Assembly (NCBI GenBank): GCA_048938855.1
Contig: JBHLLT010000052.1
Location: 1-10,936 of the forward strand
Direction: 5' to 3'
Origin: Promethearchaeota archaeon
Lineage (GTDB): Archaea > Asgardarchaeota > Lokiarchaeia > Sigyniarchaeales > SOKP01
Length of the DNA: 10,936 nt
Below are positions 3-8,353 of this stretch, in pieces. The notes beneath the pieces are model-generated. The model did not search any database, was not told the origin of the DNA, and saw only the letters and a program-made list of their open reading frames with translations. Both the position numbers and the translations under genes were made by a program. Each line of letters starts with the position of its first letter. The first letter of the stretch is position 1.

Positions 3-1064
3 GAAGGAATTTTTGGAAATCCTACAGATCGATATATCTGGGAATATTTGACTTCAATGGGCAAAATTCTAGGTATTATTTCATTAGATCAAAATACCTT
101 TCAACCATATACATGTAATAAAACAAGTATCTTATTTTTTAAGAAATTAGAAAAGATACCTAACGATTATGTAATTGATTTTGCGATAGTAGAAAATGTT
201 GGTCATGATAAAGATGGCAAAATCTTATATAAACTGGAAAAAGATGGAAGTAAAAAGTTAGATTTTAATGGAAATTCGATGATTAATGATGATTTAATAG
301 ATTTACATCTAAAACTTACAGAAGCTGAAGAATTCAACTATTTGAAAGACCAAAAGATTTTTAAAATAAAGTTTAGCCAAATTAAGAATAAAATCTTCAT
401 TCCAGTTTATTATATTGGAGTAGAAAAAACATTAAAAAAATTTGCTACTGATGAAGATTTCATTCTTCTAACTATTAAAGAATTAACTGATAAAATGATA
501 ATATATACTAATAAAGGGGGTTATATTCCTAGAGGAGATGAAATTGGATCCCACGTTTATGGTTTAGGTGAAATTCCATTTATTAGAACTAGCGAAATTA
601 ATAATTGGGAAATAAATTTAGATTCCTATAAAAAAACAAGTGAAGAAGTCTATGAACAATATAAATTGAAACAGAAGATTGAAGTTGGTGATATTCTTTT
701 AGTCAAAGATGGTGGTCCTAACTTGATTGGGAAAACTGCTTATATAACAGATCAAGATACCCAAATTATAATTCAGAGTCATATTTTTCAATTAAAAACT
801 CTAGAAAATGATGAATTCATAGATTCTTATCTTCTTTTATACCTGTTAAATTTAGATATTGTACAAAAGCAAATCCAAGCAATAACTTTCGTTCAAGGTA
901 CTATAGCGACCATAGGGAATCGAATAATGGAGGTTATTTTACCAATCCCTTCTGATATGAATAAACGAACAGAAATTTCGAGACATATAAAAAGAATTAT
1001 AGAGGATAAAAAGAATATTCGTAAAAAAATTAGAAATTTGTCATTAAAATACTCATTCGGTTAA
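3..1064 (+). CDS. N6-adenine DNA methyltransferase (HsdM-like) fused to a C-terminal HsdS-like target recognition domain; type I/IIG-like R-M protein, 5'-partial
   Basis: The frame is open from base 3 (EGIFGNPTDRYIWEYLTSMGKILGIISLDQNTFQPYTCNKTSILFFKK), matching the C-terminal N6_Mtase motifs (PEGxFxN...ISL...FxPYT..KTSILF.KK), so TTG at 48 is not the true start. The second half has HsdS TRD motifs (IPFIRTSEI, GDILLVKDG...IGK, YLLYLLN, ILPIP plus terminal helix). Stop TAA at 1062-1064. Confidence 0.85.
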   Translation, partial: EGIFGNPTDRYIWEYLTSMGKILGIISLDQNTFQPYTCNKTSILFFKKLEKIPNDYVIDFAIVENVGHDKDGKILYKLEKDGSKKLDFNGNSMINDDLIDLHLKLTEAEEFNYLKDQKIFKIKFSQIKNKIFIPVYYIGVEKTLKKFATDEDFILLTIKELTDKMIIYTNKGGYIPRGDEIGSHVYGLGEIPFIRTSEINNWEINLDSYKKTSEEVYEQYKLKQKIEVGDILLVKDGGPNLIGKTAYITDQDTQIIIQSHIFQLKTLENDEFIDSYLLLYLLNLDIVQKQIQAITFVQGTIATIGNRIMEVILPIPSDMNKRTEISRHIKRIIEDKKNIRKKIRNLSLKYSFG

Positions 1065-1472
1065 ATTTTCATCCTTTTTTAATTTAAGTTCTGTTAGGTA
1101 AATAAGCTCTTTAGCATTCTTTAATTCTTCACTTGTTATTGGTAATATATCCATAACAGCATAAGTTCTTTGATTAAGTGCTACAATCATTCCAGGCTCA
1201 ATTTTTTTATCTTTTACTCTACGAGATAAATTAACTACAAAAAATGGTCCATTAGAAGTTACAACAACAACTCTGGGCTTTTCTTGTTCTAAAACACTAA
1301 CAACTACAGCACCTAAAAGAGGAGGTTCTCTTAATCTGTCAATTTCATTTCGTAAACTGTGTAATTCTTGTTCCAACCTTAAACGCTCCGCATCTAATAA
1401 TTGTTTTTCAGTTTCTAAATTACGTAATCTCTTTTCTAATTCATCCTTATGAATATCATTTTTGCTTGACAT
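1053..1472 (-). CDS. Stand-alone PAN (proteasome-activating nucleotidase) N-terminal domain protein: coiled coil + OB fold, no AAA+ ATPase domain
   Basis: 139 aa. Heptad coiled coil ending in LRNEIDRLREPPLLG (PAN CC-OB junction 'PPL'), then RVVVVTSNGPFFVVN and IEPGMIVALNQRTYAVMDILP, which match PAN/Rpt OB-domain motifs (S-x-GP.FVV, PG..VALNQ.T.AV..ILP). No Walker A/B follows. Stop TGA. Confidence 0.85.
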   Translation of the reverse strand: MSSKNDIHKDELEKRLRNLETEKQLLDAERLRLEQELHSLRNEIDRLREPPLLGAVVVSVLEQEKPRVVVVTSNGPFFVVNLSRRVKDKKIEPGMIVALNQRTYAVMDILPITSEELKNAKELIYLTELKLKKDENLTE

Positions 1473-1572: not shown

Positions 1573-2010
1573 ATGAAGATCGAAACATTCTCTATGGAAT
1601 CCTATGATGATATTCTCTCAATTTGGAGGAAAGCAGGGATTAGTGTAGGTTCTACAGACACGAAAGAAGAAATTAAAAGAATCCTTGATGTAAATCCTCA
1701 GCTATTTTTAGTCGGAAAAATAGATCAAAAAATCATCGGTGTTGTTATAGGAGGATTCGATGGGAGAAGAGGATATGTGCATCATCTTGCAGTTGATCCT
1801 GATTATCAGAAAAAAGGATATGGTAAGATGATAATGGATGAATTAACAGCTAGATTTCGTAAAATGGGCGTACATAAAGTTCATCTATTTATAGAAAAAT
1901 ATAATAAAGAGGTAGTCAACTTTTACCTCAACTTAGGGTGGGAGATTCGAGATGATTTAGTTATGATGAGTTATATTCCTGATAAAAGTTTATACAAAAT
2001 GAGGATATAA
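1573..2010 (+). CDS. GNAT family N-acetyltransferase (YpeA-like)
   Basis: 145 aa. GGFDGRRGYVHHLAVDPDYQKKGYG (acetyl-CoA motif A) and N...VNFYLNLGW (motif B). Confidence 0.92.
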   Translation: MKIETFSMESYDDILSIWRKAGISVGSTDTKEEIKRILDVNPQLFLVGKIDQKIIGVVIGGFDGRRGYVHHLAVDPDYQKKGYGKMIMDELTARFRKMGVHKVHLFIEKYNKEVVNFYLNLGWEIRDDLVMMSYIPDKSLYKMRI

Positions 2011-2125: not shown

Positions 2126-3931
2126 ATGAAAATGAATATCGAAATGAGTAAAGAAGACCTAATAAAATTTTACGGGATAGATAAGAAATGGCCAAAAGAA
2201 ACACCAAGACATATTGATTATGAAGCAGTACCCTTAGGGCAGCTTTTAAGCACGACAGCTTTAAAATACCCTGATTCTGAAGCCATCTTTTTTGAGGGGT
2301 TTCGAATGACATATTTAGAATTAGATACTCTAGTAGACCAGTTTGCCACTGCTTTGACTAAGTTAGGGATAAAAAAAGGTGATGTTGTATGTATTGATTT
2401 GCCAAATATTCCCCAATATGTTATTGCTCATTGGGCCGTAGTGCGAATTGGTGCTACGTCTAACCCAATTTTACCTGTGAATCGATTTGTAGAGATTGTT
2501 CACCAAGTAAATGACTCTAAAGCAGAAACTTTAATCATACTGGACTTCCTATATGAAGAATACCTTCTTGACAAAGATCTAAGTAAAATGCCAACCTTAA
2601 AACAAATAATTTTAACGGGAACAGCTGAATATCTACCTCCATTGAAAGCAAAGCTAGGAACAGCTTTAGGGAAAGTCCCAAGAATGAAGGAATGGCCTAA
2701 AAAAGAAGGTGATATTATATTTCATAAATTTCAAGAAATCTTAAACAATGGACTTCCAATAAATATACCAAAAATCGACTTTAATCTGAAAGAAGATATA
2801 TCTGTTTTAATATATACCGGAGGTACAACTGGAGTTCCAAAAGGAGTAATGACATCTCATTATTCCATGGTAGTAAACACTCTTCAGACAGATGCTTGGG
2901 CTACAACCCAATTACCTGAGATGAACGAATTAAAGGGGAAGGGAAGTATGATGTTAGTGGTGCCACTTGCGCATTCTTTTGGTAATATTGGTATGACTGT
3001 ATCTGTACTAGAAGGTTGGAAGATGATATTATTACCACGACCTCCAGAAAGAATATCAGATATATTAAAAATTATGATGAAAGAGAATGCTACATACATG
3101 CCAGGAGTACCAACACTTTACATAAAAATCAATGAAGATCCTAATTCAAGTAAATATAAAGGTAAATTAAACTCACTGATTGCATGTATAAGTGCAGCTT
3201 CAGCAATACCCGAAGAGGTTAAGAATGAATATGAAAGAATAACTGGAGTGAGTATCGTAGAAGGATATGGAATGTCAGAATGTTCTCCTGTGGTATGCTT
3301 AAATCCATTTCAAGGAACATTTCAAAAAGTCAATACTGTTGGTTTTCCAATTTCTGACACATTACTTAAAATTGTAGATGCTGATAGTGGTAAAAAAATT
3401 TTATCTCCTTGTCCAAATGATAATTGTGAAAATTGTGGGGAAGATGAGTTCCAATATATCGGAGAAATATGTTGTAGCGGTCCCCAAGTTATGAATGGAT
3501 ATTTAGGGAGGAAAGAAGACTCTGATTACGCATTAAGAAAAGATTCTGAAGGCGTTATTTGGTATTATACTGCCGATATTGGATGTATCGATAACGAGGG
3601 ATATTTACATATTAAGGATAGAAAAAGGGATATGATCAAAAGGAAAGGTCATGGAGTATTTCCAAGAGAGGTTGAGGATTTAATATACATGCATGAATCT
3701 GTCAGTGAAGTTGGTGTTATAGGAGTACCTGATCCTGAAACTGGACAAGAAATTAAAGCATTTGTTTCACTAAAACCTGAGTTTAAGGGCAAGATAACAA
3801 AAGAACAACTCTTAGAATGGTGTAAGAATAATATTAGTCCTTATAAATACCCGAGAATGATTGAAATTGTCCCAGAATTGCCTAAATCAGTTGTGGGTAA
3901 AATTTTAAGACGAGAATTACGAAAGGAATAA
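2126..3931 (+). CDS. fadD: Long-chain-fatty-acid--CoA ligase (ANL/AMP-binding superfamily)
   Basis: 601 aa. P-loop YTGGTTGVPKG, EGYGMSE, TADIG, DRKRDMIKRKG..VFPREVE, PKSVVGKILRR with the catalytic Lys. The true start may be ATG 2132, which lies 7 nt after AGTGA (2120-2124). Confidence 0.93.
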   Translation: MKMNIEMSKEDLIKFYGIDKKWPKETPRHIDYEAVPLGQLLSTTALKYPDSEAIFFEGFRMTYLELDTLVDQFATALTKLGIKKGDVVCIDLPNIPQYVIAHWAVVRIGATSNPILPVNRFVEIVHQVNDSKAETLIILDFLYEEYLLDKDLSKMPTLKQIILTGTAEYLPPLKAKLGTALGKVPRMKEWPKKEGDIIFHKFQEILNNGLPINIPKIDFNLKEDISVLIYTGGTTGVPKGVMTSHYSMVVNTLQTDAWATTQLPEMNELKGKGSMMLVVPLAHSFGNIGMTVSVLEGWKMILLPRPPERISDILKIMMKENATYMPGVPTLYIKINEDPNSSKYKGKLNSLIACISAASAIPEEVKNEYERITGVSIVEGYGMSECSPVVCLNPFQGTFQKVNTVGFPISDTLLKIVDADSGKKILSPCPNDNCENCGEDEFQYIGEICCSGPQVMNGYLGRKEDSDYALRKDSEGVIWYYTADIGCIDNEGYLHIKDRKRDMIKRKGHGVFPREVEDLIYMHESVSEVGVIGVPDPETGQEIKAFVSLKPEFKGKITKEQLLEWCKNNISPYKYPRMIEIVPELPKSVVGKILRRELRKE

Positions 3932-4011
3932 ACCTTAAAAATTTTTTTATTCATTTATCTATTTATAGCTTGTTTCAATGAAAAAATAAGAAATTAAAAA
4001 ATAATCCAAGA
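3932..4011. terminator. Probable bidirectional oligo-T archaeal terminator region between convergent genes
   Basis: T7 run at 3942-3948 on + after the fadD stop. TTTCTTATTTTTT on - (3993-3981) after the flavoprotein stop. Confidence 0.5.
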
Positions 4012-5034
4012 TTAGACTATTTTTGAGCATAGATTTTTTAATATTTTTTCAGCTTTATTTGTAAATCCTGAGATTATATCATCAACATCTAATATTGAAT
4101 CAATTAATCCGACTGTTTGACCCACTGGAACAGCACCATCTACAGTATCTCCTTTTGTATAAACTAATTCATATGCCATAAGATCTGTTAAATATTCATC
4201 CATATCATAGGCTAGTTCTTGAGATATTTTTTCATCTCTACTCATTACTCTACCATGTTCTTCGCAATATTTATTTTTTAATAGCCTTATTGGCCCAAAA
4301 CCTCCTGTTGTAAGCATAGTATCTCGAGCTGTAGCAGGAGGAATAAGATCTTTGTAATTCTGATGAAATTCACTTTCAGTAGAGGCTATAAAACGTGTTC
4401 CCATTGCAATAGCATCAGCACCCAATGCTAGTCCTGCAGCTACACCTTCAGGAGTTGCAAAACCTCCACATCCAACTAACATTTTATCAGGATACTTTCG
4501 AGCGACCTGTTGCACTAAAACCAATGTAGTCACCCCTTCATAACTCTGATGACCTCCACCTTCGGTACCGGTTGCTACAATTCCATCACAACCAGATTCT
4601 ACAATTTTATCAACCAACCATAAAGCAGGACCGACATGGAAATGATACATATCAGGTGCGTTTTCTTTCCACATTTTTCCTGCAACACGAGGGCCACCAG
4701 CGCTAGTTAACGCATAAACTAATTGTTCTCTTAATTTAGGGTTTTCTTTACGCCATTGAGGTATTTTTCTTAATAAAACCCTATGATCGGTTTGAATTCG
4801 AGCAACACGGACATTAATACCAAAGGGTTTGTCAGAATGCTCTACATAATAGTCCAATTGATCTTTAAAATCTTTAACTGAATTTTTACCTCTTAATGTA
4901 GCATGACTTACAACTCCTAGACCACCTGCTTCTGAGACTGCAATAGCTAATTTTGTTGTATAAAATGGTCCCATCGGAGCACTAATAATAGGATATTTTA
5001 TTCCAAAATTTTCGGTAATTCTTGTTTTAATCAA
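4012..5034 (-). CDS. Nitronate monooxygenase / enoyl-[ACP/CoA] reductase FabK family FMN-dependent TIM-barrel oxidoreductase
   Basis: 340 aa. KTRITENFGIKYPIISAPMG, AVSEAGGLG, KPFGIN, EGGGH (catalytic His), GGFAT...AGLALGADAIAMGTRFIASTES, GQTVGLI. TTG start with GAGTGA 8 nt upstream. Confidence 0.9.
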   Translation of the reverse strand: MIKTRITENFGIKYPIISAPMGPFYTTKLAIAVSEAGGLGVVSHATLRGKNSVKDFKDQLDYYVEHSDKPFGINVRVARIQTDHRVLLRKIPQWRKENPKLREQLVYALTSAGGPRVAGKMWKENAPDMYHFHVGPALWLVDKIVESGCDGIVATGTEGGGHQSYEGVTTLVLVQQVARKYPDKMLVGCGGFATPEGVAAGLALGADAIAMGTRFIASTESEFHQNYKDLIPPATARDTMLTTGGFGPIRLLKNKYCEEHGRVMSRDEKISQELAYDMDEYLTDLMAYELVYTKGDTVDGAVPVGQTVGLIDSILDVDDIISGFTNKAEKILKNLCSKIV

Positions 5035-5174
5035 TTTTTATTTCACTCTAAAAAGTAATATTATGATAGTTTAGTTTTGCTTTTTAGAAGTAAAAAATTT
5101 ATCTAAATTGAATCCATAAAATATTCAATTTTAGATTAAATAGTAAAAAAAAATTTTAATAAATAAAAAGAAAC

Positions 5175-5828
5175 TTAAAACTTATAGCCACATTTCTTAC
5201 ACACGTTAATCTTAGAATAAAGCGGACTATGACCGACATATCCTAGAACTTTGCTTTTATCTTCTTCAACTTTTAAGTCTTTTCCTCTAGCACCGCAATT
5301 TGGGCAAATTAAACGCTCTTCACTGGTATATTCTTTAGGTGCTGTTGGTTTTAATGCTGATAATTCTGTTTCTGCTTTTTCTAATTTGCTAGCTTTTTCA
5401 TTTAATTCTTTTTCTTTTTCTGAAAGCGTTTCTGTTAATTCGTTGATCTTGGAATTTTTTTCAGCTAAATCTCTTTTCAACTCATCCTTATTTTTGGTTA
5501 ATTCAGCAATTTTCGGTTTTAAGCCATCTACTTCTGCTCTTAATTTATTAAGTTCGTCATTTTTTAAAGTAACTGTTTTCTTTAGATCATAAATTTCACT
5601 ATCTAATCTTTCTAGGTTACCGGCTTTACTTTCTAAATCTGATAACTTTCTTTGAGTTTCTTCTAATTCAGAATTTTTTTTGAGTAAAGTATCTTTTAGT
5701 TCATTTATTTCAGTTTCATATGTATTAACTTTATTTTGTAAAGCCTTTACAACTTTATCATCTAAATCTGATGTAAGGTCTTTTATTTCATCGTGAGAAA
5801 TAATTATTACACCTCTAACTTTTCCCAA
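5175..5828 (-). CDS. Hypothetical long coiled-coil protein with C-terminal Zn-ribbon (CPNC-x31-CKKC)
   Basis: About 140 aa of K/E/L-rich heptads (approx. aa 25-160), a Pro-rich linker (PTAP), then CPNCG...CKKCG. Start uncertain (TTG 5828 versus ATT 5801). Confidence 0.8.
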   Translation of the reverse strand: MGKVRGVIIISHDEIKDLTSDLDDKVVKALQNKVNTYETEINELKDTLLKKNSELEETQRKLSDLESKAGNLERLDSEIYDLKKTVTLKNDELNKLRAEVDGLKPKIAELTKNKDELKRDLAEKNSKINELTETLSEKEKELNEKASKLEKAETELSALKPTAPKEYTSEERLICPNCGARGKDLKVEEDKSKVLGYVGHSPLYSKINVCKKCGYKF

Positions 5829-6231
5829 ATAATATATTTAATTATAGTAAAAACTCGGAATTTCACTAATTGAAATTATTTACAATATAGAACGAATTTT
5901 TATAAGATTTTTATAATAGAATTTATATTTAAGCTTTTATTTTGTGATATTTTTAGTATAAAAAAGAAAATTTCGAGTATTTAAGAATATATCTAACTTT
6001 TCGGGGTTACAATATTAGTAACACTTCCATTAAGTGTTTAATCAGAATATTCAACAGTTTAAAGGTTTTATAGATGAATTAAAACAAATTTAGTCATTTT
6101 TGATTAGTAACAGATTATATTTCTTTTAAAAAGATTTGAGCTTAGATTTTTTGAGTAATGCAATACTAATTATATAATCAAACAATAAGAAAATCAATAT
6201 TAAATTTAAAATATATTATAAGTGAGAAAAT
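5829..6231. promoter_or_regulatory. Divergent promoter region with palindromic candidate operator sites
   Basis: 403-bp AT-rich non-coding gap between divergent genes. Palindromes at 6006-6022, 6020-6038 and 6154-6167. Direct repeat ATTAGTAACA at 6014-6023 and 6103-6112. Confidence 0.5.
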
Positions 6232-7482
6232 TTGAGAAAAGTTGCAATTATTGGTATTGGAATTACACCATTTAAAGCGAGATACTTAGATAAAACATAT
6301 TTTGAACTTGCCTTTGATGCAACCAAATTGGCAATTAATGATGCTCAAAAAAATGGGGCTACTATTACTCATAAAGACCTGCAATCTGCGGTTTATGGTA
6401 TTTATAATGAATTATTCGAGAGACAATTCATGCCAGATATTTTTACTAATTCATATTTAGGCATGAATAATAAACCCGGAACTCGTGTTGCAACAGGTGG
6501 CGCTACAGGAGGATATACTGTAAGGATGGCATTTGCAGAAGTTGCATCAGGATTATCAGATTTATGCCTTTGTATAGGGCTTGAAAAATGTAATGACTGC
6601 TATGATGAACAAACAGGTGTAACCACTCCAGAAGTTTTAAATGCAATTGCTTACTCCGCGGATATGACATATGAATATCCAATGGGAATGATGGCTGCGA
6701 GTTCATATGTTTCAATGGTTAACGCGCATTATGAGGAATTTGGCAATCCTACTGAAGAACAAATGGCTTACGTTAGCGTTAAAAACCATGGAAACGCTAT
6801 AAATAATCCAAAAGCACAATCTCCTATGAAAATAACTGTTGAGGATGTTATGAATTCGAGAATAATATGTTATCCATTTAAAATGTTAGATTGCTGTTTA
6901 TATTCAGAAGCATCTGCAGTACTAATACTAGCAAGTGAAGAAAAAGTTAAAGAATTAAAGGTCGAAAAGCCAATTTGGATAACGGGAGTAGCAGCAGCAA
7001 ATACAGATTGTTTTATTGGAAATAGAGAAGATATGGGTCGTTTATATTCTAATATTTACGCTGCAAAGGCAGCTTATAAGATGGCTGGATTAGACTACAA
7101 TAAAATAAAAAGTCAAATTGATTTAGCAGAACTGCATGATGCCTTTAGTGGGCAGGAAGTTATAAGCTATGAAGAACTTGGATTTGTTCCGTTTGGCGAG
7201 GGTGGTCCTTGGATTGAAAAATCTTTTGAAAAATCAGGAGAGGGACCTTGGATAGAAGGGGAATTACCATGCTGTCCATCAGGAGGGTTAATCGGTTGTG
7301 GACACGCCGTTGGTGCTACAGGAATAATGAGTACCGGAGAAGCTGCACTTCAATTAAGGGAGGAAGCGGGAAAGCATCAAGTCAAAATAGAAAAAGGAAG
7401 AGCTATTTCACATTCCATTGGAGGTCCCGGAGCAGCATATGCAGCGGTTATTGTAATGGCAAATAAGGAGGGGATGAAATAA
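6232..7482 (+). CDS. Thiolase-fold protein of the SCP-x/archaeal type (canonical catalytic cysteines absent)
   Basis: 416 aa. RKVAIIGIGITPF, VSVKNHGNAINNPKAQ, LDCC...A.A.ILASEE, ELHDAF, PSGGL...GHAVGATG, HSIGG. The nucleophile loop reads RVATGGATGG rather than RVExACASGG. Confidence 0.92.
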   Translation: MRKVAIIGIGITPFKARYLDKTYFELAFDATKLAINDAQKNGATITHKDLQSAVYGIYNELFERQFMPDIFTNSYLGMNNKPGTRVATGGATGGYTVRMAFAEVASGLSDLCLCIGLEKCNDCYDEQTGVTTPEVLNAIAYSADMTYEYPMGMMAASSYVSMVNAHYEEFGNPTEEQMAYVSVKNHGNAINNPKAQSPMKITVEDVMNSRIICYPFKMLDCCLYSEASAVLILASEEKVKELKVEKPIWITGVAAANTDCFIGNREDMGRLYSNIYAAKAAYKMAGLDYNKIKSQIDLAELHDAFSGQEVISYEELGFVPFGEGGPWIEKSFEKSGEGPWIEGELPCCPSGGLIGCGHAVGATGIMSTGEAALQLREEAGKHQVKIEKGRAISHSIGGPGAAYAAVIVMANKEGMK

Positions 7483-7484
7483 AC

Positions 7485-7979
7485 ATGAATGAAGAATTTC
7501 AAGATCATCAAATTAGAGATGTAATTCGGATAAACTATAAATATACAATGGGAGGTCAATCTAAGTTTTTCATAGAATTAATGAACAATAAAAAGCTGTT
7601 AGGTACAAAATGTACTAAATGTGGAAAAACTTGGATGCCTCCTAGAATTAATTGCTCCGATTGCTATGCATCAGCAGATTGGGTAGAACTTAAGCAAACT
7701 GGAACGATAGAAGTTAGTACAATAGTATGGTATACAACATCAGCTTTTATTAAGGCAATTCCTTATGGGGTAGGTTTTATAAAACTTGATGGTGCGGAAA
7801 CTGCATTACTTCAAGGTATTTTCTCTGAAAATTTGGTTCCTTCAAAAATAAAAAAGGGGAAAAAAGTAAAGGCTGTTTTCAATAAAGAGAGAGAGGGTAA
7901 AATGACGGATTTTTTCTTCGTTCCCGAAGATGAATATGAGAATTGGATTTCAAAACCAGAATATGAAGGAGGAAAATAA
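7485..7979 (+). CDS. DUF35 family Zn-ribbon/OB-fold protein (thiolase partner, acyl-CoA binding)
   Basis: 164 aa. LLGTKCTKCGKTWMPPRINCSDC Zn ribbon, WVELKQTGTI, PYGVGFIKLDGA, G.KVKAVF. Starts 2 nt after the thiolase stop. Confidence 0.92.
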   Translation: MNEEFQDHQIRDVIRINYKYTMGGQSKFFIELMNNKKLLGTKCTKCGKTWMPPRINCSDCYASADWVELKQTGTIEVSTIVWYTTSAFIKAIPYGVGFIKLDGAETALLQGIFSENLVPSKIKKGKKVKAVFNKEREGKMTDFFFVPEDEYENWISKPEYEGGK

Positions 7980-7981
7980 TA

Positions 7982-8353
7982 ATGGGGCAAGCAAAAGAAA
8001 GTTTGAGCCATATTATTGAGAAATTAAACACGATTCCAAAAGCACAAGCAGTTTTTGTTACAAATATCTCAGGAAAAGATGTTGATTGGGAAATGTCATT
8101 TCAATTTAACCTTAATAATGAAAATCCATTTTTTCTTGAAATCAAAAACAGAAAAATTTTGATATCTGATGGTTCTAAATCTGATGCTATAATTGTTATG
8201 TTAGGGGATCCTCAGGCTATTGTGAGAATTTGCGAAGGAAAAGGAGATTTTACACATGCCATTTCACGTGAACAAATAACTGTAGAAAAAGGAAAGGTAA
8301 TGGATGTAATACGTTTTACAAGAGCAATTACAATTGCATTAAAAACAAAATAA
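7982..8353 (+). CDS. SCP2 sterol/lipid-binding domain protein
   Basis: 123 aa. Pattern QFNL...FFLEIKN..I.ISDG...DAIIVM...AIVRICEGKGDFTHAISREQITVEKG fits the SCP2 fold. GGAGG at 7968-7972, 2-nt gap after the DUF35 stop. Confidence 0.72.
   Translation: MGQAKESLSHIIEKLNTIPKAQAVFVTNISGKDVDWEMSFQFNLNNENPFFLEIKNRKILISDGSKSDAIIVMLGDPQAIVRICEGKGDFTHAISREQITVEKGKVMDVIRFTRAITIALKTK

Follow-up and report, generated by a model that had tools for sequence, protein, structure and literature searches.

An ATPase-less PAN N-domain gene family under purifying selection in one family of Lokiarchaeia

Results

The locus

The window (the whole stretch of DNA that was analysed, 10,936 nt) is contig C21 of a 3.95-Mb host genome (G000) that is 97% complete and whose relatives are Promethearchaeota (Lokiarchaeia) MAGs. 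Its left end carries a short gene, here called mini-PAN, between a convergent and a divergent gene. The features are as follows.

3..1064, (+) strand: 3′ part of a fused type I-like DNA methyltransferase/specificity gene (~694 aa in relatives), convergent to mini-PAN; left border of the insertion site
1053..1472, (-) strand: mini-PAN gene, ATG start, 139 aa, ATPase-less PAN N-domain protein
1440..1472, (-) strand: mini-PAN residues 1-11, short N-terminus in place of the longer basic leader of PAN1; helical in the model
1317..1439, (-) strand: residues 12-52, coiled coil and Pro50-Pro51 linker
1140..1316, (-) strand: residues 53-111, OB fold (PF16450)
1056..1139, (-) strand: residues 112-139, amphipathic tail helix (core 112-125) in the place of the PAN linker; family-conserved
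1573..2010, (+) strand: GNAT acetyltransferase, divergent from mini-PAN; right border of the insertion site

In G007, G011, G035 and GCA_048941405, syntenic orthologues of mini-PAN are flanked by these two genes, methyltransferase on one side and GNAT on the other. In genomes without mini-PAN, which are most of the relatives, the two flanking genes directly adjoin, so that mini-PAN appears to have entered the site in a subclade and to have been lost repeatedly thereafter. Truncation of pan by a mobile element was considered and rejected, because an intact pan1 is found elsewhere among neighbours of its own, and the methyltransferase gene beside mini-PAN shows vertical conservation. A sigma-70 promoter scan at mini-PAN, a model ill-suited to archaea, stayed at chance level.

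Several neighbours deserve mention in their own right. The methyltransferase gene matches N6_Mtase, with a MAD2-like match below cut-off; no restriction subunit lies alongside, and the gene is kept in most genomes of the family, which is unusual for a restriction-modification gene. Positions 5175-5828 (-) encode a coiled-coil protein with a C-terminal zinc ribbon that is syntenic in relatives, and 2126-8353 hold a lipid-metabolism cluster (acyl-CoA ligase, nitronate monooxygenase-like protein, thiolase, ChsH2-like OB/zinc protein and SCP2 protein).

Architecture of mini-PAN and the full-length PANs of the host

The preliminary description had claimed an intact 139-aa ORF with the hallmarks of a PAN N-domain but neither an AAA+ domain nor an HbYX motif, and all of this was borne out. 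The ORF is present on the (-) strand with an ATG start, and the coiled coil, Pro50-Pro51, the loop at residues 73-76 and the strand-4/5 motif are all there. PF16450 matches residues 58-111 with 40.6 bits (Pfam cut-off 23), and the best sequence match in the PDB is Archaeoglobus (A.) fulgidus PAN (E 5e-24, residues 12-117). The AlphaFold2 model (mean pLDDT 82) consists of a helix at 2-47, five strands within 53-110 and a helix at 114-138, and its top Foldseek matches are the PAN N-domain crystals 2wg5, 2wg6 and 3h43. An ESM Atlas search returned only clusters auto-named as OB-domain fragments. The ORF contains no AAA+ ATPase domain with Walker A/B motifs, and tblastn found no AAA remnant anywhere in the window. 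There is no HbYX motif at the C-terminus, where the penultimate position is neither Tyr nor Phe. On TIGR01242 mini-PAN scores 89.7 bits against a cut-off of 500, which the two full-length PANs of the host pass with 590 and 558 bits.

These two, found on checking for a separate full-length pan in the genome, are PAN1 on C81 (402 aa, HbYX present) and PAN2 on C49 (404 aa). The host also has five 20S subunit genes and three Cdc48 genes, and no gene for a PAN motor without N-domain was found in it. PAN2 (C49:285531-286745; L209-L215 in relatives) represents a second, faster-evolving paralogue that occurs in many genomes of the family and often ends in Phe-Phe-X instead of Hb-Tyr-X.

The tail of mini-PAN comprises 28 residues (112-139), 12 of them charged. 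Its last five are a local, non-conserved read-through into the convergent methyltransferase gene (12-bp overlap), and the orthologues end five residues earlier, at 132-134 aa. Here the preliminary description, which had called the tail unrelated to PAN, was right about length, charge and helix, but the tail is not arbitrary: it is conserved in the family and starts where the linker helix of PAN starts, albeit with only 2 of 19 residues identical. With this shared start and low identity, the tail is a PAN linker that was either replaced or heavily remodelled.

A real gene

Contigs from three other studies bridge the OB, the tail, the stop codon and the next gene, two of them over 700-1350 (0 and 8 differences) and one over 803-1277 (5 differences). 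These independent assemblies exclude a mis-assembly, and all four strain variants checked within the OB are synonymous. Between mini-PAN and its orthologues, dN/dS is 0.052/0.443 = 0.12 (G007) and 0.18/0.84 = 0.22 (GCA_048941405); by region it is 0.12-0.35 in the OB and ~0.1-0.3 in most comparisons of the tail. Mini-PAN is thus a real gene under purifying selection, neither a mis-assembly nor a fresh pseudogene. A pan pseudogene was rejected on dN/dS, the conserved tail and the missing AAA remnant. The preliminary description had named four results that would speak against it (no homologue, an unconserved tail, dN/dS near 1, a mis-assembly). We found instead similarly short AAA-less homologues in many genomes, a tail conserved across the family, dN/dS far under 1 and a locus confirmed by other assemblies.

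A family with a single origin

A protein search with mini-PAN gave 94 matches, and 65 metagenomic clusters of 130-190 aa have the coiled coil, OB and tail in common. Full PANs truncated by a contig end or a frameshift (e.g., P0040, P0044, P0049, P0053, G010, G053) and coiled-coil-only fusions were left out of these clusters. For 16 copies an internal stop was confirmed at the DNA level, and the rest were judged complete from their shared ends. Conservation of the tail centers on its core (Glu115 in 80%, Ala120 in 89%, hydrophobic residues at 112, 117 and 124); only the first ~14 residues are family-wide, and the tail is extended in subfamilies. A penultimate Tyr occurs in one of 66 members. 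In trees built without the tail, by a quick search on few columns (101 and 63), 56 sampled mini-PANs fall on one side of one branch against 50 full PANs, with SH-aLRT of 98 for coiled coil plus OB and 97 for the OB alone; the family accordingly has a single origin. Tandem gene pairs occur, usually with one diverged coiled coil, and P0124 (L235:887-1678) is a single 263-aa protein of two tandem coiled-coil/OB/tail repeats.

In other Lokiarchaeia lineages, ATPase-less PAN derivatives arose separately; their tails differ, and in the trees each groups with the PANs of its own lineage (G041, G057, P0074). Independent PAN N-domain proteins without ATPase, with unrelated C-terminal parts, were seen in other Lokiarchaeia families (L042:4696-5316, L041:5755-6237, P0137, P0142, P0150); the G057/P0150 type has a conserved C-terminal domain of ~75 aa.

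A remodelled OB beside an unchanged coiled coil

The OB of mini-PAN is identical to that of host PAN1 at 30 of 58 positions (52%), whereas PAN1 orthologues keep 92%. Positions 56, 71, 77 and 96 are polar in PAN1 and hydrophobic in mini-PAN. Among 79 PAN sequences they are nearly invariant (T56 96%, K71 99%, S77 100%, R96 99%), and in the 66 short proteins they are kept in 0-2%, having mostly turned hydrophobic; D59 is kept in 12%. D59, K71 and R96 are charged residues common to PAN1 and A. fulgidus PAN and lost in mini-PAN. Core and ring motifs are retained in the family (Pro51 in 98%, Gly75 in 95%, Asn100 in 100%, together with Val80, Val97, Arg102 and Thr103). Judging from OB strand topology, the altered positions would share one side of the sheet. 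This points to the amphipathic tail helix as a cap over the side once used by linker and motor. The residue swaps and the gained helix are consistent with a self-capped, motor-independent fold.

Residues 12-52, in contrast, are identical to host PAN1 at 41 of 41 positions, with 20 of the 41 codons differing synonymously; against host PAN2 only 26 of 41 match. Codon identity to its own pan1 in this stretch is 0.56, and the PAN1-PAN1 background mean is 0.55, on which ground recent gene conversion of the window gene was rejected. When 11 random substitutions were placed in the coiled coil, the protein stayed unchanged in 0 of 20000 simulations, and selection rather than conversion is the cause of the identity here. 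At the outward heptad positions (b, c, f) there are seven synonymous and no amino-acid differences to PAN1, and 6-9 synonymous and 0-1 amino-acid differences to distant family members, so that conservation appears to extend beyond the pairing core to the surface read from outside.

Identity to PAN1 has a family-wide median of 0.93 for the coiled coil and 0.57 for the OB. The coiled coil is at least 90% identical to PAN1 in 49 of 66 members and below 90% in 17, in a search that favors the former. Conversion from pan1 into the 5′ part is demonstrable in two other lineages. The tract in L197 (L197:5940-6120 vs. L095) matches the PAN1 of a 95%-identical genome at 173 of 180 nt, with identity dropping to ~50% at the Pro-Pro linker, and that in G113 (L045 vs. 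L216) matches at 117 of 120 nt. The family-wide identity of the coiled coil therefore reflects both conversion and selection.

Distribution and turnover

Intact mini-PAN genes occur in 5 of 135 genomes of one Lokiarchaeia (Promethearchaeia) family, with single copies in G000, G007 and G035 and two each in G011 and G113. At least six close relatives have lost the gene or carry it in broken form, and it is hence dispensable. A second copy in G035 is frameshifted, the copy in G017 is decayed and that in G150 has an internal stop; 3′ remnants persist in G003, G094 and G104 and a 5′ remnant in G101. One further subfamily sits in a hydrogenase region and others elsewhere; neighborhoods differ between subfamilies, and no conserved partner gene was found. 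With its frequent duplications, breakages and deletions, mini-PAN is an accessory family of the birth-and-death kind. The preliminary description had seen a bearing on the diversification of the proteasome regulatory particle, a claim that turned out weaker than proposed: with this query, no tail-bearing match is listed for ~265 other Asgard genomes, many of them incomplete. Found in one Lokiarchaeia family only, and intact in so few of its genomes, mini-PAN is a late accessory invention and not a step toward the 26S regulatory particle.

The PAN1 coiled coil in other proteins

The coiled coil of PAN1 also stands alone at the N-terminus of Rab-like GTPases (25 clusters, 20-33 of 35 residues identical). 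These are proteins of ~300-325 aa with a P-loop that looks degenerate (L038:1840-2802, L039:162-1145, L218:274-1281; P0096-P0120). In a separate fusion, Rab-like GTPases carry the PAN1 N-terminus and coiled coil at their C-terminus (P0090, P0093, G025 at L220:1866-2741). In proteins of ~355 aa without ATPase, a Cdc48 N-domain is followed by a PAN-like coiled coil and, at the C-terminus, by a zinc-ribbon-like segment with four Cys (L221:396-1460, L222:3-1058, L223:1617-2690); they occur in G113, G143 and G145. P0087-P0089 and P0092 fuse the PAN1 N-terminus to an unknown domain of ~110 aa and, in a single protein that may be chimeric, to an epimerase fragment. Neither the Rab-like nor the Cdc48-N fusions were found in the host genome.

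Discussion

In the current study, we characterized a natural gene that keeps the coiled coil, proline and OB of a proteasomal ATPase and lacks its motor and docking tail. Isolated coiled-coil/OB fragments of PAN form hexamers (PMC6006169, PMC6329974), built as trimers of dimers for which a cis/trans proline is required, and PAN coiled coils bind substrate (PMC8134078, PMC6006169, PMC6329974). ARC-N suppresses aggregation without ATP (PMC8134078). The reading that we tentatively prefer, at a little less than even confidence, is that mini-PAN is a stand-alone holdase or decoy ring for whatever the coiled coil of PAN1 binds. The 5′ third of pan1 would have been duplicated, losing the AAA+ motor and gaining the tail helix, and the duplicate would have become a stable oligomer of coiled coil and OB, with the tail packed on the OB; as with isolated PAN N-domains, its probable form is a trimer of dimers. 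Displaying the coiled-coil surface of PAN1, it may bind the same unfolded clients or cofactors, which it could neither unfold nor deliver by docking on the 20S core. The net effect may be an ATP-independent holdase or decoy that buffers or dampens PAN1-dependent degradation. This reading is favored by an OB insulated from PAN1, by selection on exposed coiled-coil positions and by the tandem and fused copies; the tandem pairs with one diverged coiled coil and the P0124 fusion suggest pairing among the short proteins themselves. Against it, a coiled coil identical to that of PAN1 offers no means of telling self from PAN1 and so leaves room for mixed rings. Given that the register of PAN coiled coils shifts (PMC6006169), ring assembly may constrain the "outward" positions as well. 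The 17 members with less conserved coiled coils and the dispensability of the gene also count against it.

A close and non-exclusive possibility, to which we give less credence, is that mini-PAN joins the OB ring of PAN1 through its identical coiled coil and Pro linker and acts there as an ATPase-dead subunit, a dominant negative in the manner of a microProtein. A ring of this kind would have a gap in its AAA tier and one HbYX tail fewer, and degradation would be slowed or stopped. The coiled coil fits PAN1 and not PAN2 of the same genome, it is PAN1-like in about three quarters of members (49/66), gene conversion keeps some copies in step with the pan1 of their host, and the cis/trans proline needed for pairing is retained (PMC8134078). 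The OB tells against such mixed assembly, having diverged to 52% identity and shed three charged residues while PAN1 orthologues stayed nearly constant, as do several copies with a strongly diverged coiled-coil surface yet conserved OB and tail. In a direct complex prediction, three mini-PANs with three PAN1 N-domains, their coiled coils cut to a stub, scored 0.02, a value that speaks neither for nor against mixed rings.

That mini-PAN is a substrate adaptor seems improbable to us. In this model, docking on PAN1 or capture of clients falls to the coiled coil, and recruitment of a specific partner for degradation to the tail helix or the new hydrophobic OB face. The conservation of the tail helix, and its extension in subfamilies, would fit such a role, and the PAN1 coiled coil on Rab-like GTPases and Cdc48 N-domain/zinc-ribbon proteins is what a portable docking module would lead one to expect; but the variable neighborhoods offer no constant partner gene, and a tail of which only the first ~14 residues are general resembles a structural cap. 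Even less credible is a nearly neutral by-product, in which transient partial pan duplicates have no real function and a coiled coil kept PAN-like by gene conversion. The patchy distribution, the pseudogenes and deletions and the two lineages with conversion agree with it. Yet the window gene combines background DNA similarity with an unchanged coiled-coil protein, dN/dS is low in the OB and tail, both of which are unconverted, and the OB strain variants are silent, by which this explanation appears largely refuted already. Finally, a mis-assembly, a frameshifted pan, or one half of a split PAN with its AAA domain encoded elsewhere is refuted, even though the contig measures just 10.9 kb and its coiled-coil repeat is also present in pan1. 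Other studies' contigs span OB to next gene with 0-8 differences, syntenic orthologues exist, and neither an AAA remnant in the window nor a gene for a PAN motor without N-domain in the genome was found.

MicroProteins, e.g., Id and LITTLE ZIPPER, are small proteins that retain the domain through which a larger protein pairs but not its effector domain; they are eukaryotic and mostly regulate transcription factors. We know of no microProtein for a proteasomal ATPase. Archaeal PAN (TIGR01242/PRK03992; 6he8) and its isolated N-domain, subcomplex I (3h43, 2wg5), have a coiled coil, Pro linker and OB homologous to those of mini-PAN, which would descend from the pan1 of the host family; mini-PAN differs from PAN in the missing AAA+ domain and HbYX, the remodelled OB face and the new tail helix. 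Whereas the solved PAN N-domains are engineered or proteolytic fragments, mini-PAN is a natural gene. ARC-N, the N-domain of actinobacterial ARC/Mpa (3m9b; PMC8134078), is a coiled-coil/OB ring that holds unfolded proteins without ATP. Mini-PAN resembles it in architecture, as known here from sequence, but ARC-N was derived in the laboratory from a full ATPase that has two OB domains, and the similarity is weak (E 0.004). The paralogues Rpt1-6 pair through coiled coil and linker proline, cis/trans (PMC8134078), and tandem mini-PAN pairs are likewise asymmetric; all Rpts keep the AAA domain, and a family confined to one Lokiarchaeia family is not their ancestor. By analogy, the closest functional counterpart may be mycobacterial ClpC2, an ATPase-less partial copy of the essential protease unfoldase ClpC1 that works as a molecular sponge, having retained the N-domain with which ligands are bound (PMC10030653). 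Mini-PAN, too, is an ATPase-less partial homologue of a protease unfoldase in the same genome as the full enzyme, here two PANs. The two are not homologous (Clp repeat vs. coiled-coil/OB; no Pfam match to the Clp repeat domain in mini-PAN), and ClpC2 is also a transcriptional repressor (PMC10030653). In the searchable literature, outside which most subscription papers lie, we found neither genes for a PAN N-domain on its own nor fusions of the PAN coiled coil described, and the architecture of mini-PAN, built from known domains, is apparently undescribed.

A broader and rather speculative idea, which we consider unlikely on present sequences, is that the PAN1 coiled coil is a portable docking module, and that mini-PAN, the Rab-like GTPases and the Cdc48-N/zinc-ribbon proteins engage the PAN ring or its cofactors as a ubiquitin-independent layer of regulators linking small-GTPase signalling to degradation. 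If this were true, mini-PAN would be the dead-subunit or decoy member of that layer. On the origin of the eukaryotic 19S particle mini-PAN is no evidence, since it is recent and restricted to one family. Its interest lies elsewhere. The N-domains of PAN and ARC have long been studied as laboratory fragments, and mini-PAN provides a natural, selected gene family with that architecture, in which a frozen coiled coil beside a remodelled OB would set the client-binding surfaces of PAN apart from those in the service of its motor. The family makes the role of a motor-less coiled-coil/OB ring directly testable, and among regulators of archaeal proteasomal ATPases mini-PAN is perhaps the first decoy or dead subunit.
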